This document shows positions 3,071-43,980 of a DNA stretch of 64,000 nt, piece after piece. The stretch is from Takakia lepidozioides. Lineage: Eukaryota; Plantae; Bryophyta. The first letter of the stretch is position 1. Each line of letters starts with the position of its first letter. The position numbers and the translations under genes were made by a program. Below the pieces are notes generated by a model that did not search any database, was not told the DNA's origin, and was given only the letters and a program-made list of their open reading frames with translations. The DNA lies in NCBI GenBank assembly GCA_030704615.1, contig CM060731.1, positions 28,024,001 to 28,088,000 on the forward strand, given 5' to 3'.

Positions 3071-3289
3071 CTATCCCAAGCAGTGTGGACACAACCAATC
3101 TCCGTCAGGAACCTTCTCAAGAGGTGGTGTCAAGCATCCCATATGCCAACCCCTTGAGCATCGATCACACACCAGCATGGTGGCTGCCCATTTGGCAGAC
3201 CCACAGAGCATGCACCTCAAACCTGCAGGTACCACTGCCAAGTTTGGGTCAACTCTGCCATCAACATTGGAAGGTGACATGGCGCACAA
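3071..3289 (-). CDS. PHD finger (C4HC3) at the integrase C-terminus, 1-nt frameshift from IN
   Basis: CMLC…MLVCDRCSRGWHMGCLTPPLEKVPDGDWLCPHC. Confidence 0.9.
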   Translation of the reverse strand: MCAMSPSNVDGRVDPNLAVVPAGLRCMLCGSAKWAATMLVCDRCSRGWHMGCLTPPLEKVPDGDWLCPHCLG

Positions 3290-4360
3290 TTACGCACATG
3301 GTCCTTCCAAGTCATGCCATCCCGACCCTCCAAGATCAGGACCCCTGAGGGCAACACCTCTCGAACCCTCAGAATAACACGCCCTGCAGTAACATCCAGA
3401 GTCGTAGGAGCAGTCTGCTGCAAATAAACATAGTCATCAGGGCTAAACCTCGGAACCCCAGGACGATATCCTCTACCACGTATAGTGGCATACCTCAACG
3501 TATCACGGTGCTGTGCAATGGCAAGGTTCTCAAAAGCCATGGGCATGACTTTCTTGAACAACTCTGCACGCTGATCACATGCACGTACCCACACGTCCGG
3601 GTCGTCAAGGTTAAGGACTTGAGCAGTGTCCCTACGAATGGCTGCAGGCAAATCCGGCTCTCGGCCAAAGAGAAGGAAATATGGTGAGAAGGAGGCAAGT
3701 GATGCTTGTTTGCTGAACCTGTAGCCCATGGCTAACCAAGGAACCTGAAATCCCAATCTCCTAGGTGTCCCTTCTGCAAGCCATACTTGCGCAAACCCCT
3801 CTTCACCGTCTGAACAACTCTCTCTGCTAAGCCATCGGCCTTAGGATGATCCCGAGAAGTGGTGCGGTGGTCTATCAAGGCTTTATCACACAAAGCCTGA
3901 AACTCCCCAAAAACTCTCTCCTTGGTCCGTGAGTACCTCAGCTGGAGCACCAAATCGGCTAAGCACACGATCCAAGAATGCATACGCAGCCCCCTCACTA
4001 GCCTTGTCAGGCAATGGAACCAACTCAATCCACTTGGAGAAGTGCTCCACCATCACCAACACATATTTGTGGTGGCGCATAGTCAGTGGCAACGGTCATG
4101 CGAAGTCAAGACTCCACCTGTAGCCCAATCCCATGATTGGTAAAGGATGCAACTGTGGTGTAGGGGCGTTGAATGAAGCACGCACCCTGTCACACACATC
4201 ATGCACCTAGCCACGAACTGTTGCACCTCTGTATGCATACCACGCCACCAATACTGCCCCTGCAGTAAACTGTGAGTGCGTCGCACTCCAAAATGCCCCA
4301 ACTCCTCATGGGCATGCCGCACTAACCGTGCACGCTGTGTGGGGTGAGGCACAATCCTCA
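3217..4360 (-). pseudogene. DDE integrase (HHCC zinc finger + rve core), frameshifted
   Basis: HEELGHFG…YWWRGM…CMMC; VMVEHFSKW; LTDQGE; DGLAERVVQTVKRGL; FSPYFLLFGREP. Confidence 0.9.
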
Positions 4361-4629
4361 CCCAACCATCCTCCCACACTCGAAGTAGGTGTATCCCCTC
4401 CCACTTGAACCTCTTGGCTCGTTGCAGGATCCGATCCATCTCCCTGGCAGTCACAATGGCTGCCGTGTCTCCCGTGCGGAGGTAGTCCAACACAGCCGAA
4501 TCCTCATGTATATCTCTGGCACCACCTAGCTCATCACTAGCCTCAGGGTCCTCAGACACTCCGTCTACAGTCATCCCTGTTGTAGGTCCAATCTGACCTC
4601 CCGATGCCAAGATACACAAAAATGCAGAT

Positions 4630-6090
4630 GCGTGCCATCCCTGCACCATCTCCTCGTCCGTCTCACCATGCCACCGAGCTCCAGTGTCATCCTGCTGGCT
4701 CATGCATGGATTGCGACTCAATCCATCCGCATCCCGATTGACCAAACCCGGTTGATGCACAACCTGAAAGTCATACTCATGGAGTATAAGTGCCCACCGT
4801 GCAAGCTTCCCCATAAGCTTGTCTGACTCCATCAACCACTTGAGTGGCTGGTGATCCGTGACTAGGGTGAAAAGATTGCCGTATAGATAGCACCTGAAGT
4901 GTGTCACGGCCCACACTGCAGCTAAGCACTCTCCCTCATATGAGTTGTACTTAGCCTCTGCAGCGTTGTTCGAGCGGCTAGCGTAAGCCACTACGAACTC
5001 TCTTCTCTCATCATCCACCTGTGTGAGCACCGCTCCAAGCCCCAACATGCTCCAATCCGTATGCAACTGAAAGGGACGCCCCCTGATAGGTCGTCTCAAG
5101 ATAGGCGCCGAGGTCAACCTCGCCTTGAGCTCTTGAAAAGCTCGTTCCTCCTGCTCATCTTCCCACTGCCACTCCTGGTCCACCTTGGTCAGCTTGGTTA
5201 GAGCCTTTGCAATGGTACTAAATCCCTTGACAAACCGTCTATAATAGTTTGCCAACCCCATGAAAGCTCGAACTCGGCTCACATCCGTGGGGCGTGGAAT
5301 TTGTGCAATGGCCTCTACCTTAGTTTGCTATACCCCCAATCCTCCATGATATATCATGTGACCCAGATACTCAATCTGGTTGTGGAAAAACTTGCACTTC
5401 CCCGGATGCAACTTCAATCCGTGCACTCTCAAGCACTCCAATACCACCTGAAGGTGTCTCTCATGCTCCTCCATCGTAACACTAAAGATGATGATGTCAT
5501 CTATGTAGCACCGAGCAAAGTCCACCCCTGCTAGAATCCTATCCATGACTCTCTGAAACTCTGCAGGAGCATTCTTAAGCCCAAATGGTAAGAACCGCCA
5601 ATGGTATAGGCAATCCTTGCCGTGCTCATTGATCCCCCAGAGTCGTCTTCTGCTTGTCCGCCGCCTCCTTGATTGGCAACTGGTGATATCCGGATCGTAA
5701 ATCCAAAGTGCTAAAGGCCTTAGCATGCCCGATGGCATCAAAGATCTCCTCTGGTGTTGGCATGGCATACTTATCGGACTTGGTCTGACGATTTACAGGC
5801 CGGTAATCACCGCACATACGTCTCTCCGTCCAATTGCCATAGACATCCTTCTTGGCTGGCATCACTGTGGCTGAAGCATACTCTCCACCAGAGAGCTCCA
5901 CCAAAACCTGCCTCCCAGAGATCTTGAGTCCTCATCTGAATCAAAGACCTCTCCATGTCACTGTATCTATAGGGTCTCCGAAAGATTGGCGTGTCAGTGG
6001 CCAACTCAATACGGATCTCTTGACCCTTCAGTGCTCCCAAGTCCTTCAAACTGAAGGCAAAGCAATTCCTGTAAGCCCTCAGGAACACCG
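4630..6090 (-). pseudogene. Gypsy reverse transcriptase and RNase H, frameshifted
   Basis: RMCGDYRPVN; LDLRSGYHQ; LPFGLKNAPAEFQR; YIDDIIIFS; LHTDWS…VAYASR…ECLAAVWA…TDHQPL…DADGLSR. Confidence 0.95.
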
Positions 6091-6499
6091 TATACGTCGT
6101 CTCTCTCCTCCGGTGACAAGGGTCCAATGTTAGGCTCCCAATTGTCCTCCGTAACTGCAACCTTAAGTCCAGTGGGCTTAGAGGTAGAGGACGCGTCCAG
6201 TGGTTGCTATGTTGCAACCTCTTGAGCAGTACTCCCTGCCTGCTCAGTCAATGACAAGGCCTCATCCTGCCCCATCATCTCATCCTTGAGGACCTCCTCA
6301 ACCCGAGAAGAATCCCCAACCTCATCCATCACAGCAGCCGCCTTGGCTGCCAACTCCCTCTGAACCTCGAGCACCTGTGTGCCATGGATGCATGAACCCC
6401 GTGGTCCTCACATGCTCGCCCCCACTCAATGCCTGTACCGTCTCGGTAGGCAAAGAGACCATTGAGGGAAGTGTACTCCGCACTCTGCGTTGCTCAGCC

Positions 6500-7460
6500 A
6501 GAGCCAAGCTGATAATCCAGGTCAAGCAATTGAGATCCATTGCTTGCCCCAACACTTGACGACGTGATGCCTCAGAAAGAGACGACACCGCCATGGTACC
6601 AGGGGTAAAACCCATTGCCCGCTCACGCTCGTCAGCATTAGGCTCCACTAACTGCTGCAACTGAGCATCCCACAAGAGGCTAGGTCCACTATCCGGAAAG
6701 CATGCGATCCTGGGAAGCTGAGCAGTGTAGGTAATGTTGCTCGTGGTTGACCCACCTTGTTGACCACTGCCAAAGGCGAACGGTCATCGTGTCTCACACG
6801 CTGAGACTGCCTCCCTGTGTCCAGAATGTTATCCACTGTGAGATGTGCTGGCCGCTGCACCCCATCAAATGCACGCTTGAGCAGTGCGGGTGGCATCAAG
6901 TTAGTCCCATAGCCGTGGACGATGAGCCGTGACCCCACTGTAGCTGCATCTAGCAACACTGCTGATCCAAGCCACGACCAGACTTGATGCACACTAGCCA
7001 TCACCCTGGCCCGAGAATCGCCCATCAGTGGCACATTCTCCAAGATGTATGCTGGAGATACAGCTTGATGAAGCTTGCAAGTGGCGCAAAACCCGCACCA
7101 GCTCCCAAAACAGACCCTACCTCGAGTCTCGCAATCCATTGCCATGCCCGGCTGATGAATGCCCTTGGCAAGGCCAACCTGCCACTACCAGATCAATGGA
7201 GCCAACCCGCTCCAACCTGCGCCCCAGCAACGAAATGTCTGCTGGCAAGGCCTGCTGATATCCACGAATTGCAGACACCGACAAACAACTCAGGGTACCG
7301 CTGCACCAACTGAGCAACATGGCGAAGTGAAACGCGTCGTGCAATCTCATCCCTCTCCACATACAGGTAACGCCGAACTCGTACACCTGCTTGTAACACA
7401 GCAGCCAATCGGTGCTGATCCCGCCAAACAAGTCCAGAAGACAAATGCCTTCATCCGGAT
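6500..7460 (-). pseudogene. DNMT3-like C5 cytosine DNA methyltransferase domain embedded in pol between protease and RT
   Basis: Motifs in canonical order: I LLDLFGG (~7420-7440), II YLYVE, IV AGWPCQG (~7162-7179), VI YILENV (~7032-7049), VIII AHRPRL (~6910-6927), IX/X ERERAMGF…RRQVLGQAMD. Split by frameshifts. Confidence 0.9.
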
Positions 7461-9287
7461 ACTGCCACACAATAGGTGTGGTGTCCAATGGAGACAATTG
7501 AGGTGGTCCTGGTGCAATCCCCACACTCTCCTCCTCTCCTGACGGTACAAAAGCCTCCACCCAGGCTTGTTGCACCCGTCGATCAGCATCCCGCTGCAAA
7601 TCCTTGCTCGTGCCCCACAATGGAGTCTGAGCAACCATGGTAGGCAACTCCGCCATACCATACATGTCATCATGCTCTCCCGGAGGTGGTACATCCTCTG
7701 AATGAGCATTGCCCTCAAGCAACTCTCTAGGCCAACTCACTGCCATTGTGAATGCTGCTAGTGCCGGCATCTTGCCTCGCTGGGCAACCGCAACTCCTCC
7801 TATGAACGTCACAGGGAGCTGCACACGCCGGCCCTCCCCTGACTGCCATGCAGGCCTATAGGAAGCTGACTCCTCCAAAAAATCCAGGGTGAAGCCCATG
7901 GGGTACAACACTGCCCCACCAACCAGGACATCGTATGAGACCGCGTCTGTCACAATGGCCTTGGCTCGCATCACTGAGCCATCTGTAGGGTGATCCGGCC
8001 GTAGTCTGATAGCCAACTCACGCCGTGTCATGCCCCGAGCTTGCTCCGATCCTCCCAGAGACGTCTGTATCTGGAAAGGACAAGGCTCCATATCCGCCTC
8101 CGTGAGGCCCAAGCCTGCAATAGCAGCTCTGCCCAGCATCAGTGGCTGAACTCCCGAGTCCAACAAGACCCGCAGTGGCCGGTACCTCTTGCCTGCCGGT
8201 CCACTCAAACAGAAAATGTTATCCTGGTTGTCTAACATGACAACTCCAGGTGTCACCATGGCGCGCTCAATGGCTGGCCTAGCTGGCAGCTCCATCAACC
8301 TGGCAGCTGCAGCTTGCCATGGCGCCGCCGTGGCAGTCTTGACCCTCAAATCCGAGGATCCCTCCGGCACTACACCTCCCACTATCTCCGCAGAAGATGA
8401 AGTAACCTCCCCACTCTCACAGAGTGTAGCTGCCAGCCTGAACACCTCAGCTGGTCTTACCCCCAGTGTCGCAATCATGGTAGCCGAGAACAATGGAGCC
8501 TGGCACACAGATGTGGCCGCTCCTAGCAGCACACTAGCTGCCGTAGCCTTGGCAACACTAGGTAGTGGTGCTACCAGTGTAGCTCTCCCCAATGGCATAG
8601 TAACCTCCGCCTCGGTAACAATCGGGCGAGAACTAGGTGCCATGGATGGCATCGACACTGTCTCCACCAATGTGAATGACTGAGGAAGCCTAGCCTGACG
8701 GCTTGCCTCCCCACGCTGTGGATCCAACTCCACCTCTGCACCTCGTGGCTCAGGAACTCGTGCTGCTCCTCGAGTCACGGCTGCAGCAGACTCCACTGCA
8801 CTAGTGGTAGTGCTGCCCCACACATGAATCCCATGCCTCCCATATCTCCTCCCTCAGGAGTAGGAGGTGGACCATCCGGCCTTAGAGCCGGTACCACCTG
8901 AGCTGTAGCCATGGCAGCGAGCCTCTGCTCTAGCTGCTGAAGCCGGTTGGCCATGCCTTGGTCAACACCCTGACCTCCGCGTCCTTGGCCACGTTGAGCT
9001 TGCCCTTGGCCTCGTGGCTGGTCACCTCGTCCTCTCTGGGCTGCTCCACCTCGCCCCCGGCCACCATTGTTCCCTTGGAACTGGCCTGGGCGCAACTCAG
9101 GATGCAAACCATAACACTGGGCCTCTCCATGCCCGTGCTTGCCACAATGTCCACACTGCAACTGTGCAGGCTGTGCATGTGCCGACCCTTTGCCAGTATG
9201 GAGGGGATCCAAACACAAGAAATCAGAACGACAACTCCCCCACACCAAAAACAACTCCACGGTGTTGCTCCTGCAAGGACACCCCAA
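7461..9287 (-). pseudogene. Gag C-terminus (CCHC zinc knuckle, G/R/Q-rich) and aspartic protease
   Basis: CGHCGKHGHGEAQC (ORF 8775-9287); LRVLLDSG and YDVLVGG (ORF 7117-8823). No capsid domain recognised upstream. Confidence 0.8.
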
Positions 9288-9589
9288 CCCAAACCCGGAC
9301 TAACTCTTGCCTCCACCTACGGAAAGGTCTTGGCCTAATGAGAGGGTGGAAACTACAAGGAAGAGAAGCTAAAGCAATGCCTAACCCCAACATGCCCTCA
9401 TCCCAACACTCTTCATCTCCTCTCTTTCCTCACTTGCATGACCATGGGAGTATCATGAAGATACTCCTCATACCGCCCTCCACGAGCTTCAAAATTCGGC
9501 CTTCCAAACCACATGCCAGTCCTTAGGCAGTCCACCAGTGCCTCCACGAGTCAGCACAGGCCGTCCACAGGTCAACACGGGCCACCACA

Positions 9590-10445
9590 GACCAGCACAG
9601 GCCCACACAGCTCACTGGTCACAACCGTCACAGTCCCACAGGCCACTGGGCACAGCCTGTCACAGCCCCTCATAGCCCGTCACAGCTCGCCACAGCCTGT
9701 ACAGCCGTCACAGCCCCACACGCCACTGGGCACAGCCAGTCACAGCCCGCACAGCCCGTCACAGCCCCACAGGCCACTGGGCACAGCCTGTCACAGCCCC
9801 GCATAGCCCGTCACAGCCCCACAGGCCACAGGCACAGCCTGTCACAGCCCCTCACAGCCCGTCACAGCCCCACAGGCCTCAGGCACGGCCTGACACAGCC
9901 CCTCATAGCCCGTCACAGCCCCAAAGGCCTCAGGCACAGCCCGTCACAGCCCCATAGGCCACTGGGCACAGCCAGTCACAGCCCCGCACAGCCTGTCACA
10001 GCCCCTCATAGCCCCAAAGGCCACGGGCACAGCCTGTCACAGCCCCTCACAACCCCTCACAGCCCCAACGGCCTCAAGCACGGCCTGTCACAGCCCCTCA
10101 CAGCCCGTCACAACCTCAAAGGCCTTAGGCACGGCCTGTGACAGCCCCTCACAGCCCATCACAGCCCCAAAGGCCATGGGCACAGCCTGTCACAGCCCCT
10201 CACAGCCCGTCACAGCCTCAAAGGCCTCAGGCACGGCCTGTGACAGTCCCTCACAGCCCATCACAGCCCCAAAGGCCATGGGCACAGCCTGTCACAGCCC
10301 CACAGGCCAATGGGCACAGCCTGTCACAGCCCATCATAGCCCCCAAGGCACCGGCACAGCCCGTCACAGGCCCTCACAGCCCGTCACAACCCGAAGGCCA
10401 TGGGCACAGCCTGTCACAGCCCGTCACAGCCCATCACAGCCCCAT
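9590..10445. repeat. Minisatellite of TCACAGCCC-like subunits with ~50-bp higher-order units, inside the DNMT-Gypsy leader
   Basis: Many iterations of ggcacagcctgtcacagcccctcacagcccgtcacagccccaaaggcc. Confidence 0.95.
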
Positions 10446-10899
10446 CCATGGCCGCTCTGGCAGTTTAGCCATTTCTCCAAGGGGTTTAGCCACGCCAGCT
10501 AGGGTTTGTGTCTCTTGGACTCTAGGCTTCTTTCCACCGAGCTATGGCGGCTGTGAGGAAATCAGCAAGGTATTCTTGCTCTTTCAGCTCCCACACACCA
10601 CCATAGTAGCCCTAAGCCATGAGGTGGTTGCCACAAACCAAGCCTTCTTTCTCACTTAGCCTCCCCAAACACGCCACTAAACTCAATGGCAAACAACCAA
10701 GCCCTGCTGGTTCCCAGCTCTTGTGAGCACTCATTCAAGCACTCTCCTTGGCCATAACATCTGTCTTAGAGCCTATTCCAGCCCCCTACACCTGCAGCTT
10801 CAAGAGTTGCGCTCCCTTCAAGCTTGAAGTTGAAACCCCAACTCACATAGGCACTACAAGTGCTTTTCTTTCACTCCAAGTGGAAACCAGCCCTAGACC

Positions 10900-11300
10900 T
10901 TCCATTCTAGCTCTCTAAAGCTTGAAAACAAGAGCCTCAATGGGCTGAAGGCATGCTCCACACATGCCCCACTCTCACCATAAGAGAATCAGCTCCTTTG
11001 CTTCATTTCTTGCACCCACAAACCTGAAAATACAAGCTTCAGCAGGCTGAAAGCATGCTCCACATGCCCTACAGGGAAACCAGCCCCTTCCTTCCTTTCT
11101 TGCACTCCCACACCTGAAAGTGCAAGCCTTCACCAGGCTGATAGCATGCTCCACACATGCATTGCCCTCACATAAGGGAAGTCAGCCCTTCCCTCTTCCT
11201 TGCTTGCCCTCCAAGCTTGAAGATGGAAGCTTCAATGAGCTGAATACATGCTCCACACATGCAACCTCTTCACACAAGAGATATCAGCCCCTATCTTGGC
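10900..11300. repeat. Degenerate tandem repeat (about 4 copies) with core GCTGAxxGCATGCTCCACACATG
   Basis: Core seen near 10945, 11046, 11137 and 11239. Confidence 0.75.
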
Positions 11301-11960
11301 TCCTTGGCTCCTTGATGCTCTCTAAGACAAGACCAAGCACTCCACAGCCTTTGCCAAGCTCCTGAAACCCTAAGGCTTACATTTCCAGCCACAAGACACT
11401 TCTCTTGTGGTGCAAGAACTCTTCTTCTAAGCTCTGAAACCCTAGGTGCACATTCCATGGCCTTGCCGCACCTCTTAGCTCCTGTTCCAGCCCTGCTCTC
11501 GCCATGACAAGAGCCCTCTCAATGCTGAAGCTCGAGATTGAAACCCAATCTCACCATACTCCACAAAGTGCACTGATTTGCCCCAAGCCAAATCAGCCCT
11601 TTCGCTTGGTCTTGCAATCCTTCACACAATGAAAGCTCGCATTCCCAAGTCCAGTTCTCAGCTTTGCCACCAAAGCCACTATAACCTCCTCGTGACTGGT
11701 CCTCTTCCCAATCGTGCTTGCTCGTGCATGTACACAATCTGAAACCATCAAGGTGCTCTGGAATTACCTGCAGTATGGTGCTTTCATCTCTGAAGCTGAA
11801 GATCGAATGCCAAGGTTTACCACCTCGTAACCCACATCGCCTCCGCTTCTAACAACCAAGAGCTCCACGGAGCTCCTTGCATAACAACTTGGTTTCTCTC
11901 ATTCTCAAGCAAAAACCACAAGTGCTACAACTAACTCGTATCTAGCACTCATAGATACGA

Positions 11961-11976
11961 GCTGATCTTTCTCGAG
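11961..11976 (-). promoter_or_regulatory. Non-tRNA primer-binding site, putatively self-priming
   Basis: Directly abuts the end of X and has no TGG. Inverted complement of 12142-12157 inside X (15/16 nt, 12 contiguous). Confidence 0.65.
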
Positions 11977-12303
11977 TGATAAAGAAGAAGAATACAAGCA
12001 CAAACTCATGCGAGCTCACAAAGCTGAAGCATAAACTCATGCATATATAACCTCATCACTCAAATACAAGTCAAGCCAAGTGCACCCCACGCCATGGGGA
12101 ATCCACACTACGGCGCCATAGCTAGGCGCAGTGAGGCTCAACTCGAGAAAGATGAGCCTTCCGCGCTTGCCGTGAAGATAACCACTCCAGGGCCTAAATC
12201 TGCCTTGACCCCTGGATTGACACTTGGGCCAATCCCAAATGTCAATATGTAAAAGCTAGCTATTTCCTAGCTAGTTTCACACTAGTGGTAAAATAACTTG
12301 ACA
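11977..12303 (-). repeat. LTR segment X (R/U5-like), terminal copy, 327 bp
   Basis: Direct repeat of 2303-2629. I count 4 differences, all transitions. Confidence 0.95.
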
Positions 12304-15300
12304 TCTATGAAGGGAGCTCGATCAGCCGATTTGAAGCTACTTTGCACTTGCTCAACTTGTGCACCGCCCACAAGTGCACCAATGGCTTTATGGATGAGCT
12401 TCTTGGATTGTTGCACAAAAGTTTTTTGCCGAAACAGAATTCTCTGCCGAAAACTAATTATGAAGCTAGAACTATGATTGCGAAGATGGGATTGCAGTAC
12501 ACCCAGATCCATGCCTGCGAGAAAGGCTATGTACTCTTCCGTGGGGAGGATGAAAAAGCAGAATTTTGCCCGGAGTGCAAGACATCGCGTTACATTCCTG
12601 GTCGTGGGACTGTACCCAGAAAAATACTACGACATTTCCCTGTCATCCCAAGGTTGAAACGCATGTATCAATGCAAATCAATCGCGCACCTTATGACATG
12701 GCACTTCAGACATAAGAGTCAGGATGGATTGGTTTGACATCTAGCTGATAGAAAAGCCTGGGCCCACGTTGACTCCACATTTGCGGATTTTGCTTCAGAA
12801 CCACGAAATGTACGATTTGGATTAGCCTTAGATGGAGTAAATCCATACAGTGCTCAATCCACGAGTTGGAGCACATGACCCATCCTGTTGGTCAACTATA
12901 ATTTGCCTCCATGGTTGATGACGAAGAAGTTTTTCGTCATGTTAGCACTCCTTATCCCTGGAAAGGAGTCTGTTACATCTGCGAATATTGATGTGTGGAG
13001 AGGCATCATAGCTTACGATGTTTCCCAAGCTCTCCAACAACGCCAATTCTTGCTACGGGCATTGCTGCTATGGTCAATCCATGATTACCCTGCATATGGC
13101 TTGCTCGCGGGTCAGGTTACTAAAGGTTATGCTGGTTGTCCAGCCTATGGACCCGAGGTGGATTTACAACATTTACATGCATGTTCGAAGACTGTGTTCC
13201 TGGGCCATCGGAGATTTCTTGCCCACAACCATCCGTATAGAAGATCAAGATTGTTCAATGGTGTTGTTGAGCATAGAGTGGCTCCACAAACGTAGACAGG
13301 AACACAAATAAAGAAACGTGCAATTGACCTGATTGCATGGATAGCAGCAGGGGGGAAACCAGATACGCCATCAGACCCTTCCAAATCTCACGGAGTGAAG
13401 CGATTATCAATCTTATATGCCTTGCCTTACTGGGAGGGCCTCCTCATACGGCATACGTTTGATGCTATGCATTGCGAGAAGAACTTTGCAAAAATATCAT
13501 TAAGACTATTTTTGGGGAGAAAGATACATCGAAGGTTCGGCGTGATCTTGAATTACTTGGGCTGCGTCCATCATTGTGGTTGCAATGACATCTAGACAGG
13601 GCAGATACGTTAATCATGCCTCCTACTCCTTATGTTCTGACTGAAGCTGAGTTGAAAGTTTTCTTGGACACTGTGCGAAACCTTAAAGTACCCACAGGAT
13701 ACGCATCAGCTTTCAAAAAACACGTGGTAAAGAAAAAACTATCTGGCATGAAATCACATGATTACCATGTGTTCATGTACCAAATTTTACCGCTGGCTAT
13801 TCGTGGGTTCATGGCAACAGGTGTGCGCACTACAATTTTGCGAGTATGTCGTGTATTTAGGAGGTTGTGTGCAAAAGTAGTGAATCCTGCAGAGTATGAG
13901 GAGTTGAAACATGAAGTAGTTGTTACTCTCTGTCTAATGGAGAAAGAGTTCCCACCATCATTCTTTGATGTGATGACACATCTGTTTGTCCACCTAGTGG
14001 ATGAGCTCGATTTATGTGGTCCTGTGGCATCACGTTGGATGTACCCCATGGAGCGGGCAATTAAAGAAATGAAGGGGTACGTCCGGAACATGGCAAAACC
14101 TGAGGGCAGCATGGCTCAAGGATACATTTTTTATGAAGCTCTAGGATTTTGCACGGAGTATATGGCAGGATATGATGGAACCGCACGAAGGGTGTGGGAT
14201 GCAGATGAGGAAGAATCTGTGGCCGGCGTAGTTTTGGAAGGAGCTGGCAAACCTTGGAAATTGGGTGACTTGCATGCTATTGTACACGATTACATCATTC
14301 AAAATCATCCAAGCATATCCGATATGTTGAAGTAAGTCCACACCCTTTCAGATCTGAATATTTTGTTGATTTGATCTTTTTGTACTGCCCCATGCTTAGT
14401 CTGTGTTGGCTAAATAGCCTCGACATTTTGTGCCAGGAAATATGAAGAGGAGTCCAGACAAATGGATGATTGTCCTCCATTTGCTGCTTGGCTGCCAAAT
14501 GCTGTACGAGAACATCTATCTGGAATTCAAGAACATGTGCTTGAAGATGGCGTACGACAAGAATTACTGGATCTTTCAAGACCCCCATCATATTATGCCT
14601 TGACATACAAGAGTGTGTCAGGATATGGCAACCATTACAGGGCTACATCCCCAAGCATGAACACATCGAGTATGGCATCCTTTGATTGTGGAGTCTCATC
14701 AGTTTTCAAGCATGAGACGGAATCTGTACGGTATGTGGGTCTTATCAGGGAGATTTTGCAGATTGACTATGGCACTACACGACCTTTAGTGTTTTTGTGC
14801 TCCTGGGTACGGGCCCAAAATGTGGGTCGTCAACCCAGATCAATGAAGGAAGATGATTGTGGCTTCACGTTGGTCAATTTCAATCAAATGCTACCACCCT
14901 CTGAACAGCCTTTTGTATTGCCAGTACAGGTTGATCAAGTCTTTTTCTCTGAGTGTGTGAAGGAATGACAATGGAAAGTTGTATTGGAGAAGAGCCCCCG
15001 ATCACGGAGAGTGGTGTGTGATATCTCAATTTCTATTGATGATCTCAGAAGAGTTGAAGGCTTGTTAGCTCCACAACAACTACAAGAGACATTGACTACT
15101 GGCCGAACTCACAACCGAATTTAGACAGTGACACCAGAGCAGCTGACCTCATTGTACCGACCCCCATACCGACGACGCGAGGTACAACCCCCAGTTGACC
15201 AGCAGGTCTGTCATGAAGACACAGATACCTCCACCGACGTTGAGGCTATAGTTAGTGATGATGACACAGATACCTCCATATTCACAGACACGGATTCAGT

Positions 15301-17370
15301 CGATGGAAATTAGATATGCTACCCTTGTGCATGTATTACCTGTCATTCCAAATAAATGTACTCTTCTGTCCCCATGTAGTCACATTTTTTTGGGTACCAA
15401 CTGTCAATGAACATTGATATTCAAATATGCTCACAATTCCTCCATGCTATAAGCTGTTGTGATCAAGCACTAGTGGATTGGCCACTAGTAGGGCCATTGA
15501 TTCATTTCCAGATTGTAAAACATTGGCACCCAGAAGTTGGGAAGTGACCCAGTCTGGCACTTCACCATTCTACACTTCTAATATCTTCCAATGTGCATCT
15601 ATTAGCACTGATTTCATCGCTAGCAACCTGCAGTAATATCCCTATATCAAAAAAATCCCATACCCACATCCCTGGGCCTTTGTCTAGCTTCAACTACAAC
15701 AACATATTGCCACATTTGGCATACATCTACGCCACTCAATATCCAAACTGATATTGGTACAATTCATGCTTTGATCCTGTCAATTCTTTGCCCCTTTGTA
15801 GAGTTGTAGACGGGGTGGCATGCATAGCAATATCCTGCAAACCTGGCCCTGTGCATTTTCACCCCTTCTACCACTCTGAATCGATGTGAGTCTGCTCAGT
15901 CCCTTTGTCTGGCCAGGGCTGAGTGAGTCTGCTGAGTGTGACTGGACATGAGGCTGGGGATGGAACCTTTTGTGCAAGGCTGCTTAGTGGACTTGCCAGA
16001 CTGGACACTCTACTTAGTCTATCCAGTCTACTCAGTGGCTTGGCCAGTCTACCCAGTTTGCTCGGTTTGCTGAGTCCACTCAATGTATTCAGTCTGCTGT
16101 CCAGTCTGCTCAGGCAGAGTGGACAAGGGACTGGTGAGAAACCATCCGCAACTTATGAGTCTGCTGAGTTTTGACGAGTCTGATGCGCACTAGTGTCAGT
16201 GGTTCTCAAGACTCTGACTGACTGCATGAATAAAGACTACATGTGAATGGATCCACCTGCAAAGTCAGTCTACTGATAGACACATCAGAATGGTTAGAGT
16301 ACTAAGAGCAGTCTGTCAGGAAAGGCTTGTCCGATTACGAGAATGTGTCTGCTTGTAAGACATCCATTGACAGACTGTTCAATAGACTTGTTAGAAGTCT
16401 GGTTGGCAGACTGGTTCGAAGAGTGTCTCCGTGGCCAAAGGACTGGTGACAACTAGCAGACTGAAACCAACAGACTTAGTCCTGAAACCAACAGCCTTAC
16501 ACCTGCGCTTGGGCTTCAACAATGTGCACATTTCGTGCCCTCGGCGAACTGGACTGTATATTGAACAAAGACTTGTGCACATGCAATCAGACTGACTCTC
16601 TTTTATTTCATGGGGAGAATGGTACTGGAGCATTTCTTGGAGTTTATTTTACAACAGATACACGGTCTGCAACCTTACGGATTGTGGAGTATATTTGTGT
16701 TGCAGGTGTTGGGGCTCCAACCCTCTTGCCTGTTTTCCACAAGACTCTGGGTCGCGTTCTCCATGCCTCCACGAAATCCTGTTTCCTTTGCAACGACATA
16801 TTGTTGTTGTCATTTACAGTATGAAAGGTCTTTGCTGCCGTAAGGTGCAACATTCATGCAGCACTCTTGGACAAGGTATCAACAAGCTGCCCCCTACAGA
16901 TTCGGAGATATGACATCACATGACTCTCCAGGTATTTGTCATCACCAACAATGCGACATATGTCAGCAAATTCTTCGTCCATGGAGGCTGATACGAGGAC
17001 AAGTTCCTGATCATAGGGAAATTCATCTGTGGAAGGTCCGTCATATGCATTTCCCAAATCGTCTTCGTCGCCGCCGCTTGCATGAACCCCAAACACATTA
17101 TGCAATCCTCCATGAATGGTTCCCAGCGCCATGCCACAAGCGGGCACTATGAGTCCATCCTGCAAATGTGGATGAAGCATCTTCAGGACTCGGACTTGAT
17201 GCTTGCACAAATTGCCCTTCATTGCCCATGGGCAAGTGCAAGAAGCCCATTCACATGTGGGGTTGTAAACAATGTAAGTTGTGTTTGGGTGATTGGTGCT
17301 TAGAACATAGGCTGGTTGCCCAGGATGGAACGGAAGAGAAACATTGCAAGCTAGGATGTCGCGTGCCGCA

Positions 17371-18093
17371 TGTCGCGCACCTCCCTTCGGTAAGCTCCCC
17401 TTCACGTCATAGATACTCGCTTTGATGCGCGCGCCTGATTCCCAACCTGGCCGCCGGGCCAACTTGGAGCTTCGGCTGCTCACCGGGACATAACGGTCCC
17501 CCTTCGCTTCCCACTAAACCCTCCACCTATTCGGGACTAGTGGAATTCCCTTTGGTAGATGGCAGTCCGGAACAGCTCCCCACTCTTTGGTCGCTTTCCG
17601 GCTCGCTCGCTTACTCACTAGTTTTTGGTCACCAACGGGCTTGCACCGTTCTCGGGGTACTACTCCCTATATATACTTCTGTAGCTGTCCGCGGGGGTTT
17701 CACAACCAGCCATGCCATTTTATGGCGAACCACCACGAAAACCCTCGACTCCCGGTGATGAGTCGCGGTGAGTCTTGGCCCACTCATCACGGCCCCTATG
17801 GACCGTGATGAGTCCCAAGACTCCCCACGACTCCCACCACGAGGTCTCCGCCCCCATGGTGAGTCCTATGCCACCCCCACTAAGTCCCGCTAAGCTACCA
17901 CAACCCCTTGTGGAGCCACCCCCACCGCACCCGGTGTGCGGGGCTCCACCTAGTGAGCGCCTCCGCCTCCTTCAGTGCCTTGGGCACTCAAGGGTGCTTC
18001 AGCCCCCCCATACCTACCGCTGCCGCTGCCCCCACCACAGGGGCAGCCCTCATGTGTCCCGACCCCCTGCCCTCAAAGCAAAGGGCCGCGACA
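17371..18093 (-). repeat. 3' LTR of the chromovirus
   Basis: Near-identical to 23972-24694. Preceded on the minus strand by the purine-rich GGTAGGGGTGTG. Confidence 0.95.
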
Positions 18094-18944
18094 CACACCC
18101 CTACCAACAGGGAGTCGATGTCCTCATCGACTTGTCCATTTTGTAGAAACGAACATCCAAGTTGTGGCGTCCCACATCAAAGAGTTTGTTTCCGCACATG
18201 GCGTCCCATGGCAAAGAACCAAACACCACACTTGACTCTACTCTCCACTAGCTTGTTCGGCCGACTTCCTCCAAGTCCCGGCCAAGGGTGGAGCCTCTCC
18301 AGCTCCTCCCAGTGCACTCTTCTTGGCCTACTTCAAGGCCAAGGAACGATCCTCCCCGAGGATCGAATCGCCTTACTGCAACAACATTGCTTGCGACCGC
18401 TCATGATGCCGCTTTTGGCATCACCTTGAGCAAGGGTTCACCTGGGACCCTCTTGACTAGGAAGATAACTTTGAACCAACGTGCGCCCCAATCACTACAA
18501 TTGGGTCCGCCTTGGAATGCTGGCCTGAGGTACGGGAACACGCCGAAGCCGCACTACGACTTCGTCCCGAGGCTACACGATTATAGTAAGTGAACGGAAG
18601 CACGTGGCTTCCGCGTTAGCCTGCACTACAAGGCAACCCCCTCGGTAGCGTATAGTTTATAGTACGCGCACGCGCCAGGTGCGCACTAGCACGTGTGAAC
18701 TCCCAAAGAAAGGCGCAAGTTTCCTTGCCCTCGGATGGGGGTCACCCGATTTCGGCACTACACAAAACACACGATTAACCCAATTTACCTCTCCCACTTT
18801 TATAAGCTGCATGCATTCTACACACTAGCCAACCATACCATGCATCACCATTCCAAACAAAATAGGACGCACAACATTTGGAATCCGTTTAATTTATAGC
18901 ACGTTTGTACAATACAAGTTTTTGCAATCGGATTCCTAAGCTAG

Positions 18945-21900
18945 CTAAGCCGGGCTAAGCATGCATTTCCTCCCCCATGCTCCAAGGTTGATGTCCCCAT
19001 CAACGCTTCTCCGCTTTTGAGGTCGTCCTTCGAAAGCTGCGACCGCCTCGGATGCGTTTCCCTTCTGAGGCACGCACCCAAGAGGCCTCCACATGATGAT
19101 AGCCCTTCCATTTGAGAGATACTCTGTTTCTCGGTTCTTGAACCTCCTTGACTTAAGTATTGCCTCCACCTCGTACTCAGGTTCATTTTCATGATCCAAC
19201 AACATAGGTGGCGGACGCAACACTTGATGCCGATTCGGACGCGCTTCATCTTTGAAGTAAGGCTTCAAAAAAGAGACATGGAATACTGGGTGCACCTTGC
19301 TGTTTGCCGGCCAGCTCCAATTCATACACATCCTCATTCATAACCTTCCGAATGCGAAAGGGTCCTGCATACGGAGGTACGAAACTTCGGACTCACTTCA
19401 GGCGGGTAGTCGAAAATTCTTGATGTTCAACCAGACCTCGTGCCTGCCTCAAACTTCACTTCCCTCCGCTTCGATCGCTTGCCTTTCATACCGTTTCCTA
19501 GCTTTGGCAATGTTGTACTTTGCGAGCTTCAAAAACGCTCGCGTTCTTCCAATACTGCCGCTACTGCCGGTTCCTCAACGTCCTGGCGGCCCAACTTGTC
19601 GGCACCAGAGGTGCTTTTCCATAGACCAATACGAAAGGGGAAACTCCCGTTGCGGAGTGTTCTGTGTATTATAACAGAACTCGCCGCGTCTAAGTGTTCC
19701 ACCCAGTCTGTTTGGTATGCCGAACGTAATGCCCGCAAGATCTGCTTCACTACGGAATTCACCCTTTTGTTGGCCGTCGGTCGTAGGTCGGAAGGCAGTG
19801 CTCATCTTCAGCCTCGTCCCCATCTTCTTCCAAAGTGCTCTCCAGAATTTACTCGTAAACTTTGGATCGCGGTCCGAGACAATATCCTCGGGACTCCATG
19901 ATGCTTAAGAGTGGGCGAAGTAAAGTCGCCCTGTCTCCTGCACCGTTGCCGTCTCCTTGGTGGGGGATGAAATGGCCCATTTTACTGAACCTATCTACCA
20001 CCACCCATGATTGCATCGAATCCTTTTGACAGCGGTCTGGAATCGGCAAGGGTTGTAACAGCCCCGCTTGTTTTTTGTACTCGCTCCGGTTTTGTTGGCA
20101 TGTGGTGATGTCTTGACATACTCCTCTGCCTCCTCCCTCAGTTGTGGGCCAGAAATACTCTTCTTCAAGAGTGCCGCAGTGCGCTTGGCTCCGCCGTGGC
20201 CCGCAAGCGGGCTATCATGGCATTCTCTCAAAGAGGAGGCATTCTGATCCCTCCCTTCGGCACGTAGAGAGCTTTGCTTATACTCGGAGCAACCCATTTT
20301 GCAAGTGGAACTGCGATTTAACCCCCATTCTCAAGTCCTGCATCACGGACTTTGCCAGCTATCCTTCTGGCAAGCCTTCTGGATCTTCCTTTGGAGCCGG
20401 TCTCGCCCTTGTAACCAACAAGAGCTGCTGCTTTCTACTTAAAGCATCGGCCACCACGTTGTCTCGTCCCCGGGTTGTACAAGATATCCACGGCGAACAC
20501 CGCCAAAGTATCTTGCCACCTAAGTTGTTTTGGGGACAACCTTGGGCTGCGTGGCAAATACTTCACCGTGGACATTGTCCGTGAACACCTTCACTGGGTT
20601 GGAACCAACATAGTGGCGCCAGAGTCAAGACAGTGCACCACCGCCTCCATTCTTCTCGTGCGTCGGCCACCGTCGCTCCACTTCATTTAGTTTCTTACTT
20701 CGTAAGCCACGGGACGTCCATCTTGCATCAGCACACACCAATCGCGAAGTCCGACGCCTCTGTATGTATCTCGAACGGACGATCGAAACTCCGGGATTTT
20801 CAAGACTGGAGCTTCCGCCATCCGCTGCTTCAATTCAGCAAAAGCTTGGCCAAAAAATGTGTTCCATACCCAGACTTTGGATTACACAGAAGGTCCGACA
20901 GCGGCGCCACCCGATCTTGGTGAAATTTCTCAAAAAACTTCCGGTAATAGGAGGTGAGTCCTAGGAAGGATCGCACTCCCGGGACCGAAGTCGGAGGACT
21001 CCCAGTCCAAGATCGCCCTCACCTTTCTGTCATCCATTTTGAGCCCATCGGTGTAATCACATGTCCCAAGAACTCCACTTTCGTGACCCCGAATTCGCAT
21101 TTTGAGCTTTGGCGTAAAACTTCCCTTCCTGCAACTTTTGGAACACCCTTTTGAGGTGCCTCCAGGGTGTTCTCCTTTTTTCGAGTACACCAAGATGTCG
21201 TCGATGTAACGATCACAAAGTCATCCAACCACTCCTGAAAAGGCTGTTCATCAGCGTGCTAAAGTCGCCGTGTGCATTAGTGAGCCCAAAAGGCATCACC
21301 AGAACTCATATGAACCATACCTTGTCCTGCACGCGGTCTTCTCCTCTCTCCTTCCGCGCACCCGCAATTTGATGATAGCCGGAGCCAAGTCGCGAATCGC
21401 GGTGAAATACTTTGCTCCTGCCCCCAACCGGTCTCGAAAAGGTTGTCGATCTGGCGAAGGGTAACGGTTTTCAATAGTCACACTATCAAAGCCCTGTGAA
21501 TGACACACATCCGCAGCGTCCCATCCTTTTGTCTGCGAATAGCACCGGGGTGCTCCGTTAAGGTGACTTACTCGGCCGGATTGTACCCCTTTGACATTAG
21601 ATCTTGAGCCGAGTCTTCAGCTCAACCAACTCCCTGTGGTCAACCGGTAGGTGCCATGGTAGGCGGTTCCGGATCCCAGATATCACCTCATCTTGTGGTC
21701 AACTCCTCTTCGCTTGGTGGCAGGCCGATTGGTAAATCCTCCGGCATCACATCATGGTATTGCTCCAAGATTTCCCTTGATCCAATCTGGGCTCGGCTCC
21801 CCATCGCCTTCTCCCTTCACTACTCTAATGTAAAGCAAAAAATTGGGCTCGTGTGCCTCCTCCACGGCCCACTCCTGCTGACAAAGGTTTATCGCCCTCC

Positions 21901-23480
21901 CACGGAATTGGGCGTTTCCGACACTCGAAAACCTCGCCACCATCCACATGGCAGCGTGACTACTCTCTGCGGCCATCTATGACCGGATTTGCTCAAAAAG
22001 GTCATCCCCAAAATGAGATCCACTCATCGATCTTCGCCAGATGGTGAAGTTCTCACCGTCCCTCCAAAACCCCCCAGTTGAAGAGGAACATCAACGCCAA
22101 CCTTGTCGCCATCTGTGTTTACTCTTTGCAGAACGCACCTCAATAGAGGCCCCCCGTCACTTGCGTGGTAGTCCCATTGTGCCGTTGCCGGGTCATGAAG
22201 GAGTACGACGCTCTATGTCCACAACAAGACACATTAGTTCCAGATATTATCCCAGACACGACAAACTGACTCCCTTTCGTAAGGCGCCAGTTTCCTGATA
22301 CAACTCACAAGAAAATTGCCTACCTTGCAAGTCCTGGCGACCACCGCTTCCACCAAGCGACTGATGGTATCTTAGACAGCGCGTGGTCGCCCGAGCATGT
22401 TAATTGCGGGGCTTCGTGCCACTTTCTTGGGCCATATGCCCGAGGCTCCCGCCAATTGAAACACACTCCATCAAGGCCGCCTTTGTCCGCCATAAGCCGC
22501 TCCACCGCTTTTCCTTCGAAAGCACGGGGTGGCGCCTTGAAGTGTGAAGGTCTCCCTCGATTTCCACGTGCCATTGTCGCCGCGTGGCTATCCCACTTCG
22601 TTTCCGGTCGGAAGGCGTTACCTTCCGCCAGGTCTTCTTGTGGTTCAGCTCAGTACGACCTTGTCTCTCACCTTAGGGACATCCGAGAAACATTCAGGCC
22701 CTCTCAATTGCCTCGTCCAAAGGTCTTGGTGTGGTTTCTCCTCCAACTCCGCCTGTTGCCCATGGGGCCAACCCCGCCACAAGTTGAAGACCCTTTTCTA
22801 GTTCTGTCATGTCACGACTTCGAGCAACAACACAGAAAGCCTGGACACCCCCGAATGTCATAGGTTTTGCTTTCAAATTCCTCATCTCTGTCGGGCAGAG
22901 CCAGGACGCGTTGAGGGGCACAACCTGTCTCTTCATCGAATTCCTTGAACCCACTCCAGTTCAAGGTTTCCGGGTGGGCCTTGGTCGTGAAGGCGTTTCT
23001 GCCACCGAGTTGAGCATAGCCCCTCAAATAGGGTGGGAGCCATTCCACCCGATCCTCGTCACTCAACATTGGCCGCACGGAAGTACTGGCTCTAGCTACG
23101 AGGAGCAAGGTGTTGAGTGCAGTTCTGATTTCGAACGCCCTCGAAGGTGCGGGTTCCTTAGGCTTCACCTTAAACTTTGTCCTTAGTGGAAGTGGCATTA
23201 GTGCCTTTCAACACGTCTTTCAACGTCCCGCCAAACTGCGCCAACAACCCTTCCCAAAAGGCTGCCGGCACAGGAGGCATCTCTTGGTTTGTCGGAGCTC
23301 TCAAGATTGCCTCGGCTCCGACTCCTCGGATTCCTCACGCTCTTGAGGGGCCTACGTTTCCGGACAACATGCATCGCTTCCTCAAATGGCTGTCGGGGTG
23401 ACACGTCGCCCCATCGGGCTCCCCAGGATCATCATCTTGGGCCGTCCGCTTTCGCTTCGGCTTGCCCGACCCCATGATGA
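18945..23480 (-). pseudogene. Heavily frameshifted gag-pol with chromodomain
   Basis: KVKPKEPAP (gag); KTACRTRYGSYEF; KCEFGVTKVEFLGHVI; HDSPLAGHGGAKRT; VVVDRFSKMGHFIP; VHPVFHVSFLKPY; EYEVEAILKSR (chromodomain). Confidence 0.9.
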
Positions 23481-23957
23481 GGCCAAGACCCAAGGACGAT
23501 GGTGACTGAAAACTCTAAGCTCTGATACAAAGTGTCGCGCAACCCCTCGGGTAGCTCCCATTCACGTCTTAGAACTCGCTTTGACTGCGCGCGCGCCTGA
23601 TCCCCCATACACTGGCCGCCGGGGCCAACTTGGAGCTTCGGACTGCTCCCCGGGACATAACGGTCCCCTTGCTTCTGCGCCAACAACCCTTCCCAAAAGG
23701 CTGCCGGCATGGGAGGCATCTCTTGGTTTGTCGGAGCTCTCAAGGATTCCTCGGGCTCCGACTCCTCGGATTCCTCCCGCTCTTGAGTGGCCTCGTTTCG
23801 GAAACATGCATCGCTTCCTCAAATGGCTGCCTCGGTGACACGTCGCCCCCATCGGGCTCACCAGGATCATCATCTTTTGGGCCGTTCCGCTTTCGCTTCG
23901 GCTTGCCCGACCCCATGATGAGGCCAATCCCAAGGACGATCGCGTACTGAACTCTAA

Positions 23958-23969
23958 GCTCTGATACCA
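23958..23969 (-). promoter_or_regulatory. PBS complementary to initiator tRNA-Met
   Basis: TGGTATCAGAGC 2 nt after the 5' LTR. Confidence 0.95.
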
Positions 23970-23971
23970 AG

Positions 23972-43642: not shown

Positions 43643-43980
43643 ACTCGCCCACGATTCTGTGATAGTGGAGAAGAGAAAGAAAATACTGTCCCCGTGCTGG
43701 GACTACGCTCAGGTTTCTTGAGGAAGTTGCACACATGCAGATGCTCTTGGATGAAGGCTCAGGATGTTTCTTGTCAGATGATGTTGAGAAAGATGTACGT
43801 CGATCAACGTTGCCAAGATCCTGTCTTCGGGCAAACAACGAGATTGTTGGATCGTATGGGAATGGAAGAGCCACCAACTGTTTGTTGAAGTTTTCGGAGA
43901 GCTGTCATGCCGGAGATAACAATCTTGCGCAGCCCTCTGCTTGAAGCGTTTTGACAGCATTGTGAATTAGGCGAAAGAAT

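Follow-up and report, generated by a model that had tools for sequence, protein, structure and literature searches.

Frame-shifted remains of a DNMT3-type methyltransferase domain that closes the gag-protease frame of a Ty3/Gypsy-type element in Takakia lepidozioides

The element and its methyltransferase domain

The DNA analysed here (the window) is a stretch of 64,000 nucleotides from the bryophyte Takakia lepidozioides (GenBank assembly GCA_030704615.1, contig CM060731.1, positions 28,024,001 to 28,088,000 of the forward strand), and all positions below are counted from its first letter. Its minus strand carries, from 12303 to 2127, a retrotransposon of the Ty3/Gypsy type in which the remains of a DNMT3-type C5 cytosine methyltransferase domain (DNMT; 6520-7449, minus strand) lie between a protease-like region and the reverse transcriptase (RT). 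From its 5′ end, the element consists of a repeat termed alpha1, a leader with tandem repeats, a gag remnant, the protease-like region, the DNMT, the triplets UAG-CAA-CCA, RT, RNase H (RH), integrase (IN), a PHD finger, a purine tract, a second kind of repeat termed beta1, the dinucleotide GC, and further copies of both repeats, alpha2 and beta2. The order of protease (PR), RT, RH and IN is that of Ty3/Gypsy elements, and the best match of the family profile among solved structures is Ty3 Gag-Pol (E = 2.2e-131).

A preliminary description of this DNA had reported five motifs of C5 methyltransferases in non-permuted order between protease and RT, and when the minus strand of 7700-6250 was read in three frames, all of them were seen: motifs I (LLDLFGG), IV (GWPCQG), VI (ENV), VIII (AHRPRL) and IX/X (ERERAMGF...RRQVLG) lie at 7449-6520, with a D-S-G protease-like region upstream and the RT (PF00078) downstream. 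In tblastn searches the region matched intact relatives in alternating frames (E = 4e-36 for the DNMT part of protein P0012 and E = 6e-133 for protein P0011), and a frameshift-aware alignment of 7449-6358 with P0011, which is from Marchantia, gave 65% identity over 358 aligned residues. The motif set and this homology are far above the chance level. The domain is interrupted by six frameshifts, at about 7409, 7285, 7074, 6925, 6906 and 6691, and by one in-frame stop (7117-7119); being a pseudogene, it can no longer give rise to the enzyme. Motifs I and IV do share the reading frame of the protease, as had been stated, because two shifts between them sum to three bases, but the stretch between them is out of frame, and the frame is therefore not kept from one motif to the other. 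A PF00145 search, which had been proposed as a check, gave 18.1 bits on the longest piece from the window, below the gathering cut-off of 22, because the gene is in pieces, whereas intact relatives scored 35.2, 35.6, 46.1 and 49.0 bits, all above that cut-off; the match in the window is partial, at motif IV. When the open pieces of the window's DNMT were compared with solved structures, no useful match was obtained, the pieces being too short.

Upstream of the DNMT, the protease-like region (7879-8256, minus strand) was recognised from the D-S-G motif at 8160-8152, within the open reading frame (ORF) 7117-8853, and from alignment to relatives. No Pfam protease family matched in the window copy; in a relative from Closterium (P0286), aspartic-protease Pfam families and PF00145 occur in one protein. 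What is left of gag (8901-9206, minus strand) comprises the second CCHC zinc knuckle, within the ORF 8775-9299, and the stretch following it, as found by tblastn with P0122, P0130 and the gag-PR ORF of locus L011 (L-numbered loci, and all locus-based counts below, come from the 80 loci that were fetched of 200 related stretches on metagenome contigs). Upstream of about 9206, tblastn with three full gag-PR-DNMT relatives found no match to the N-terminal part of gag (about 315-400 residues). The 2.7-kb leader region (9300-11976) in which relatives encode this capsid-like part is occupied by an array of about 17 units of a 51-bp tandem repeat (9586-10444; family D1 of the repeat search, also found by self-blastn). 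The plus strand of this array contains long proline/serine-rich open frames, which are probably meaningless.

Downstream of the DNMT, the second ORF (ORF2; 3074-6197, minus strand) encodes, according to Pfam, the RT (PF00078, E = 6.8e-25), RNase H (PF17917/PF17919), an integrase zinc domain (PF17921), the integrase core and the PHD finger. In a frameshift-aware alignment, 6167-3074 is 71% identical to protein P0003 over 1015 residues, and it is broken by seven frameshifts (6095, 5905, 5643, 4198, 3918, 3748 and 3266) and two stops (5328 and 4096). The recombinase is not the tyrosine recombinase of DIRS elements, since the integrase zinc domain PF17921 is present in the window and the integrase core rve (PF00665) in relatives. 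This copy is defective in every gene and lacks the N-terminal part of gag.

The integrase ends in the PHD finger (3080-3214, minus strand; PF00628, E = 1.7e-11), which among solved chains comes nearest to the PHD fingers of CHD4, PHF12, KDM5B, ATXR5, PHF21A, DPF3, AIRE and UHRF1. Fingers of this group read histone H3 with unmethylated K4, and the finger of the element may steer the integrase to chromatin. Among green-algal transposons, PHD fingers are described as a common accessory domain in an excerpt of Craig et al. (2021; PMC8557442).

Type of the methyltransferase

The preliminary description took the non-permuted motif order to indicate DNMT3 rather than the permuted DRM enzymes, and the comparison with solved structures bears this out. 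The order in the element is I, IV, VI, VIII and IX/X, and the permuted order of DRM, in which VI-X precede I-V, was not encountered. A query profile (A2) made from three open DNMT domains of fetched loci matched DNMT3A (8.5e-15), DNMT3B (7e-13) and DNMT3C (2.4e-12), and, ten orders of magnitude behind DNMT3A, tobacco DRM (7e-5), M.HhaI (1e-4), DNMT2 (4e-3), DRM2 (6e-3) and DNMT1 (0.77). The alignment with DNMT3A runs through three collinear stretches that correspond to motifs I, IV-VIII and IX-X, whereas that with tobacco DRM is limited to motifs I-IV and falls on the C-terminal portion of this chain, which is what a permuted enzyme should give. When the L011 domain was modelled with AlphaFold2, the predicted local distance difference test score was 90.8 and the predicted template modelling (TM) score 0.90, and when this model was used as a query in Foldseek, all 30 rows listed (ranks 1-50) were DNMT3A/B/C, with a best E-value of 1.7e-20 and TM scores of 0.72/0.79. 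By sequence and by predicted fold, therefore, the nearest solved relatives of the domain are DNMT3A/B/C, and it is of the DNMT3 type and not a DRM. Pfam found neither a PWWP nor an ADD domain in ORF1 of the relatives, and we therefore speak of a DNMT3-type enzyme and not of a canonical host DNMT3.

Two reading frames and a conserved stop

In the relatives, the coding region is divided into a first frame for gag, protease and DNMT (ORF1) and a second one for RT, RH, IN and the PHD finger (ORF2). The gag-PR-DNMT proteins of Calypogeia (P0128) and Marchantia (P0121 and P0122), as well as P0130 and P0131, all end 60-100 residues past the DNMT domain, while the RT-RH-IN-PHD proteins P0003, P0004 and P0006 are about 1030-1080 residues long; the label of P0004, which comes from a transcriptome assembly, marks its ORF as complete. 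The window is divided in the same way: the DNMT is followed by a tail of ORF1 (6207-6519, minus strand; ORFs 6322-6783 and 6207-6407) in which the frame changes at least once more. The end of this tail is homologous to that of ORF1 in P0121, P0122, P0128, P0130, P0131 and L011, and leads to an in-frame UAG, followed by CAA CCA (6198-6206, minus strand), that separates ORF1 from ORF2. The earlier placement of the DNMT inside pol has therefore to be given up, because the domain ends the gag-protease frame, before the conserved stop, and no single continuous pol is present.

This stop recurs across the family. Both ends could be placed at 36 loci; ORF1 ended at one conserved site in 15 of them, and in six ORF2 followed in frame after the single stop. 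At the 33 loci showing the flanking pattern (of 80 scanned), the conserved stop codon was TAG in 24 and TAA in nine, and in none was it a sense codon. Locus L011 has three open stretches in one frame with single stops between them. One of these stops (L011 3192-3194) stands between protease and DNMT, and it is probably a mutation, because other relatives have no stop there.

The sequence UAG CAA CCA of the window (6206-6198) agrees in every base with the type I readthrough motif UAG_CAR_YYA, as given in an excerpt of Firth and Brierley (2012; PMC3542737), who cite Skuzeski (1991) for it; in moss-type loci the stop is followed by CAA CCC, of which the last base is off the motif. From these features, the stop between ORF1 and ORF2 is likely to be leaky, with readthrough at low frequency. 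If readthrough holds, the DNMT would be produced along with Gag and protease and in quantity, and RT-IN would be scarce.

Split repeats and target-site duplication

The outer ends of the element are TG..CA and are flanked on both sides by the tetranucleotide TAGA, but its repeats are arranged as alpha-coding-beta-alpha-beta and not as two long terminal repeats (LTRs) around a coding region. Read on the minus strand, the upstream copy of the target-site duplication (TAGA, 12304-12307) is followed by alpha1 (11977-12303), which forms the 5′ end with 327 bp, runs from TGTC to ATCA and is 98.8% identical to 2303-2629. At the other end, the polypurine-like tract AGGGGGGCGA (2812-2821) stands directly before beta1 (2632-2811), which ends in GACA and is 97% identical to 2127-2303; then come the dinucleotide GC (2630-2631), alpha2 (2303-2629; found by repeat search and self-blastn) and, as the 3′ end, beta2 (2127-2302, about 177 bp; self-blastn), which again ends in GACA and is followed by the second TAGA at 2126-2123. 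The junction of beta1, GC and alpha2 is a 10-bp palindrome, GACAGCTGTC. The preliminary description had counted about four differences over 327 bp of LTR; the count agrees with the 98.8% identity between 2303-2629 and 11977-12303, although the sequences compared are split direct repeats and not plain LTRs. A plain LTR consisting of alpha alone was considered and dropped, because the flanks would then be without a duplication and because the beta-alpha-beta end recurs in other loci.

This recurrence was found in the independent loci L065 and L079, in both of which beta1 is preceded by a similar G-run motif; with no more than about 84-85% identity between their repeats, the target-site duplication and the exact repeat ends are not fixed there. 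In L079, a distant relative, the region of the beta1/alpha2 junction (about 15850-15900) also contains a 10-bp palindrome (AACAATTGTT). In L064, L039, L003 and L057, short repeats occur in pairs with a spacing of 300-450 bp, which suggests that the split layout of the window is present there too. A comparable arrangement is on record for an element of Klebsormidium, with DIRS-like A-coding-B-A-B repeats and Gypsy domains (de Mendoza et al., 2018; PMC5890265, legend of Fig. 4c). We suggest that the permuted layout may derive from a circular or junction-templated intermediate: if DNA with LTRs made of beta plus alpha formed a two-LTR circle, and this circle were cut at its palindromic beta/alpha junction, the product would have the order alpha-coding-beta-alpha-beta and TG..CA ends.

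Carriers of the family and positions of the domain

When the RT-RH-IN piece of the window was used as a query, the best matches came from Calypogeia fissa (68%) and from gene models of Marchantia polymorpha, and among the 120 matches listed, PF00145 was present in 15 and a PHD finger in about 82 (hand counts). The DNMT region of P0011 as a query gave 26 matches, including 16 M. polymorpha models, one from C. fissa and one from Sphagnum fallax; protein P0122 represents 18 member sequences clustered at 90% identity. Algal carriers include Closterium species, Mesostigma viride and Chromochloris zofingiensis (P0092). The preliminary description named absence of the domain from other family members as a refutation; the domain is present in them, both in models from Marchantia, Calypogeia and Sphagnum and in the 200 metagenome stretches. 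A HMMER search returned 6358 representatives with E-values up to 1e-3, of which 332 were at or below 1e-30, and for the top 150 E was below 1e-52 throughout. In a FastTree tree of 88 chosen rows of 242 with midpoint rooting, the window belongs to a clade, supported at 1.0, of 25 bryophyte-type tips, and stands beside Marchantia sequences with weak support (0.70). The family is a bryophyte clade of a very large group of Gypsy elements of the green lineage that carry a DNMT. With a DNMT3-type domain in the coding region of a Gypsy element and A-coding-B-A-B repeats, it is of the Gypsy-DNMT3 kind described from Klebsormidium (PMC5890265).

Two architectures occur within this group. Among the best 150 representatives, 67 also contain the RT-RH of the family, and the RT precedes the DNMT in 62 of these and follows it in five. 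Pfam annotation of 14 long representatives, with the DNMT positioned by the HMMER search, placed the DNMT between RNase H and integrase in 12, while P0174 is built like the window and P0146 has PF00145 only. The DNMT tree separates the two architectures with support 0.998. RT-IN proteins of Klebsormidium are 40-49% identical to those of the window, and those gene models are without PF00145. In P0105 and P0111, which belong to the same Gypsy-PHD group, a Dam-type adenine methylase (PF05869) is found instead, in agreement with the subject of a 2026 preprint (10.64898/2026.05.21.726589, in excerpt).

Other copies and the age of the insertion

We compared the DNMT stretch with short contigs of public runs (X1-X4 from one organism, X5 from a plant metagenome and X7 from a second organism), matched over 1.3 kb at ≥90%. 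The matching short contigs numbered 10,471 in X1 and 13,953 in X2; more than 10,000 per run point to a highly repetitive family. Each of the six frameshifts of the DNMT is offset by a compensating length change in part of the contig depth (in X1 from about 6% to 66%, depending on the place), while the rest has the state of the window, and at the stop position 7117-7119 the letter differs in nearly all of the depth. A single contig of X7, 2.3 kb long, covers the whole stretch, with 30 other letters and all six compensating changes. The breaks are genuine and not assembly errors, several of them are common to many copies, and frame-continuous versions exist.

Because the repeats are 97-98.8% alike and yet 13 frameshifts lie within about 4 kb, several of the breaks being shared, we infer that this copy was probably already broken at insertion and was mobilised in trans as a defective element, not long ago. 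The repeat identity had earlier been taken to imply recent activity of such elements in land plants. The copy is indeed young by that measure, but the support that it lends to recent activity is indirect, since several of its breaks are shared with other copies and it has probably moved in trans.

Selection and enzymatic activity

In a column-based count, the catalytic Cys was kept in 188 of 190 family proteins and the Glu of ENV in 189 of 190. Bryophyte-type ORF1 proteins keep motifs I, IV, VI, VIII and IX, with GWPCQG in 10/11 and ENV in 11/11.

The ratio of non-synonymous to synonymous substitution rates (dN/dS) was estimated by the pairwise Nei-Gojobori method, and the same aligned bases read in shifted frames served as a control; independence of the pairs is not given, and in the deep ones synonymous sites are saturated. 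The DNMT had a median of 0.555 over 2382 pairs, and RT-RH one of 0.397 over 732 pairs. We do not take the former as a sign of purifying selection; when the DNMT was read in shifted frames, the result was 0.55 and 0.58, and a value near 0.55 is therefore the baseline, so that only the split by distance is informative. For deep DNMT pairs (distance 0.3-0.6, n = 137), the in-frame ratio was 0.18 against 0.73 and 1.83 in the shifted frames, and it was the lower one in every pair. RT-RH pairs at distance 0.1-0.2 from the same loci gave 0.36 in frame and 0.50 and 0.82 in the shifted frames. At the variant sites of the DNMT among copies, 11 synonymous and 15 non-synonymous changes were counted (26 sites in the 40 shown of 67), for which the expected synonymous share is 0.32 (p = 0.17). 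Based on the deep-pair ratio and on the conservation of Cys and Glu, the DNMT has been kept by selection over the long run, while the recent bursts in bryophytes are without a signal of constraint. The comparison of dN/dS among copies that the preliminary description had called for has therefore a divided outcome: constraint is seen across deep splits, but close copies look neutral.

Of two retrotransposon-borne enzymes expressed in yeast, that of SymbioDIRS-Dnmt3 showed de novo CG methylation (PMC5890265), whereas the domain of KnitGypsy-Dnmt3 from Klebsormidium nitens gave no detectable methylation, a result that its authors called inconclusive, since human DNMT3B failed as well (PMC5890265, section 10). 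The methyltransferase of intact relatives is nevertheless predicted to be active on DNA, as is likely though by inference.

Surroundings of the element

Pieces of a CACTA/En-Spm-type transposase (Transposase_21, DUF4218 and DUF4216; 12297-14968, plus strand) begin at the 5′ end of the retrotransposon, which may have inserted into or beside a DNA transposon of this type. A SWIM zinc finger is located at 16857-17513 (minus strand). A second pair of direct repeats, with 275 bp at 98% and 127 bp at 94% about 6.6 kb apart, lies in 17384-24456; the five long ORFs scanned inside it had no Pfam match, and it is possibly a non-autonomous LTR element. Among ordinary host genes, an exon-like ORF at 31257-31814 (plus strand) matches pfkB carbohydrate kinases (E = 6.7e-21). 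Further along, at 43969-46107 (plus strand), an open frame of 712 residues encodes a pentatricopeptide repeat (PPR) protein with E, E+ and DYW deaminase domains, of the type that edits RNA in plant organelles. This gene and the CACTA-type transposase are both in keeping with a land plant. To our knowledge, marchantiid liverworts are without DYW proteins, so that the host probably belongs to another line of bryophytes.

Interpretation and alternatives

We give a probability of roughly three in four to the following interpretation. The window holds the frame-shifted remnant of a DNMT3-type domain that ends the gag-protease frame of a land-plant element of the Ty3/Gypsy type. The prediction for intact relatives is that the enzyme is synthesised jointly with Gag, before a likely leaky UAG, and methylates DNA, most plausibly the new copies of the element. 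Intact elements would make a Gag-PR-DNMT protein, and occasional readthrough would yield Gag-PR-DNMT-RT-RH-IN-PHD; the methyltransferase would act on the element's own new DNA, which the PHD-tipped integrase would then place in chromatin. A more ambitious version, to which we give decidedly low odds, is that these elements set their own epigenetic state: Gag-PR-DNMT, made in Gag-like amounts ahead of a leaky UAG, would be packed into the particle and methylate the cDNA, and an integrase whose PHD finger reads H3K4me0 would insert permuted DNA derived from a circular, junction-bearing intermediate, so that writer, reader and an unusual replication route form one system.

Several observations weigh against our interpretation. 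A 4-bp target-site duplication has odds of 1 in 256 of arising by accident, and readthrough, PHD targeting and the circle model are all read from sequence features alone. The assignment to the DNMT3 type draws on solved structures and on the published tree with the Klebsormidium enzyme (PMC5890265) rather than on a tree with host DNMT3, DRM and DNMT1. No DNMT-bearing protein of Klebsormidium was among the 26 matches of the DNMT region, so that the likeness to that element is taken from its published description. Close DNMT pairs (distance < 0.2) have in-frame ratios of 0.56-0.76, not below the 0.37-0.57 of the shifted frames; the whole DNMT stands in one open frame in only 2 of the 80 fetched loci; in motif X, bryophyte-type proteins have Q where algal relatives mostly have N; and the domain of KnitGypsy-Dnmt3 showed no detectable activity in yeast (PMC5890265).

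The last four of these points also speak for an alternative in which the DNMT is a passenger in bryophytes, inherited from algal ancestors in which it mattered, now dispensable for transposition and slowly decaying. The RT-RH of close copies does have the in-frame signal of selection that their DNMT is without, and the defective subtype of the window seems to have spread, given that the frameshift states hold a sizeable share of the depth. However, the ORF1 proteins of Marchantia, Calypogeia and other bryophyte-type carriers keep the motifs in nearly all cases, P0122 stands for 18 sequences at 90% identity, and the deep pairs have an in-frame ratio of 0.18 against 0.73 and 1.83. Differences among dead copies would be mostly neutral whatever the domain does. 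We consider the passenger explanation unlikely, though by no means far-fetched. It is also conceivable, if quite improbable, that the domain works otherwise than by methylating the element's own cDNA, either as a non-catalytic binder of DNA or chromatin or by acting on host DNA or RNA; its role in the family has been deduced from sequence, and it sits in the Gag-PR precursor and not with RT-IN. A pure binding module would have no need of the catalytic Cys, ENV and RxR, which are kept in nearly all members, and the nearest enzymes by sequence and fold are the DNA-acting DNMT3 proteins, DNMT2 reaching only 4e-3.

Two further explanations concern the locus itself. If the frameshifts were assembly errors, the copy would really be intact, and 13 length changes in about 4 kb of coding sequence are indeed many for repeats that are 97-98.8% alike. 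Against this, the state of the window is found in part of the short-read contig depth at all six places of the DNMT, evidence whose independence is limited in so far as the runs X1-X4 may share the sample of the assembly, and the copy has three premature stops and no N-terminal part of gag as well; we hold an intact copy to be very improbable. That the domain is a fragment of a host DNMT3 gene, or a chimeric capture unique to this locus, would be suggested by the resemblance to DNMT3 alone, and its probability is close to nil. The domain is without introns, PWWP and ADD, and the same domain, in the same place and with the same neighbours, occurs in models of three bryophyte genera (Marchantia, Calypogeia and Sphagnum) and in 200 metagenome stretches, with the best 150 cluster representatives all at E < 1e-52, which refutes a one-off capture.

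A methyltransferase carried by a retrotransposon reverses the usual picture, in that the parasite writes the silencing mark of its host. Land plants hold such elements in abundance, among them 16 annotated but unrecognised gene models of Marchantia polymorpha. This liverwort can be transformed, and methylomes and methylation mutants exist for it as a model plant, so that the question of the enzyme's activity and purpose becomes testable. That retrotransposons can bear a DNMT was already known, as the preliminary description stated: the print record comprises dinoflagellates and one charophyte alga, Klebsormidium, and it left open the activity and the purpose of the Gypsy kind of enzyme (PMC5890265, section 10). 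The words Marchantia, liverwort and moss are absent from the text of that paper; the accessible passages of PMC12344493 and of the preprint 10.64898/2026.05.21.726589 give the carriers as "streptophytes", citing the same 2018 paper (PMC5890265), and an excerpt of PMC11982613 holds nothing on land-plant members. In the literature searched, whose scope excluded most subscription journals, supplements and figures, no land-plant member of the Gypsy-DNMT3 kind was found to be named. The element in the window is, in sum, an ordinary dead copy of an unusual kind that has already been described, in a host group for which we found no write-up, and the details added here are that the DNMT belongs to ORF1, that a stop is conserved behind it, that split repeats are combined with integrase-type ends and that two architectures exist. 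Any model of these elements is constrained by a DNMT that stands before a conserved and probably leaky stop, by an integrase that ends in a PHD finger, by split repeats with ends of the integrase type, and by two positions of the DNMT in pol across the wider family.

Comparison with known systems

The catalytic domains of mammalian DNMT3A, 3B and 3C have the same motif order, from I to X, as the domain of the element. However, the latter is only about 21-22% identical to them, lacks PWWP and ADD, has a longer stretch between motifs VIII and IX, reads PCQ where the aligned DNMT3A chain reads PCN, and is embedded in a retrotransposon polyprotein. Plant DRM enzymes are themselves relatives of DNMT3 and were matched weakly (7e-5 and 6e-3), but they are permuted and the domain of the element is not. 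For the stop between the two frames, the nearest parallel is the type I readthrough of tobamoviruses, where UAG_CAR_YYA likewise stands between two in-frame ORFs (PMC3542737, in excerpt), although here the context is that of a retrotransposon and the readthrough is predicted from the motif.

Among retrotransposons, Gypsy polyproteins of algae and metagenomes, including that of Chromochloris, have a related DNMT (E < 1e-52), RT-RH-IN and a terminal PHD finger as in the window, but in most of them (P0151, P0159, P0162 and others) the DNMT lies between RNase H and integrase, whereas in the window it lies between protease and RT. KnitGypsy-Dnmt3 of Klebsormidium nitens shares with the window an intronless, non-permuted domain of the DNMT3 type in a Gypsy element with a DDE integrase, A-coding-B-A-B repeats and the key catalytic residues (PMC5890265). 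It differs in its host, the window being from a land plant and its relatives from liverworts and a moss, and in the position of the DNMT, which is within the Pol ORF in KnitGypsy-Dnmt3 but ends ORF1 before the conserved stop in the family of the window; the integrase of the window ends in a PHD finger, whereas "PHD" occurs 0 times in the text on KnitGypsy-Dnmt3 (PMC5890265). SymbioDIRS-Dnmt3 of Symbiodinium is likewise a retrotransposon-borne DNMT3 with A-coding-B-A-B repeats, but it is a DIRS element with a tyrosine recombinase in a dinoflagellate host, and the paper regards its DNMT as an independent acquisition (PMC5890265). More generally, the DIRS, PAT and Ngaro elements have, like the element described here, two kinds of repeats and an internal joined copy of both ends, but while they use a tyrosine recombinase, the element in the window combines this layout with a DDE integrase, TG..CA ends and a 4-bp duplication.

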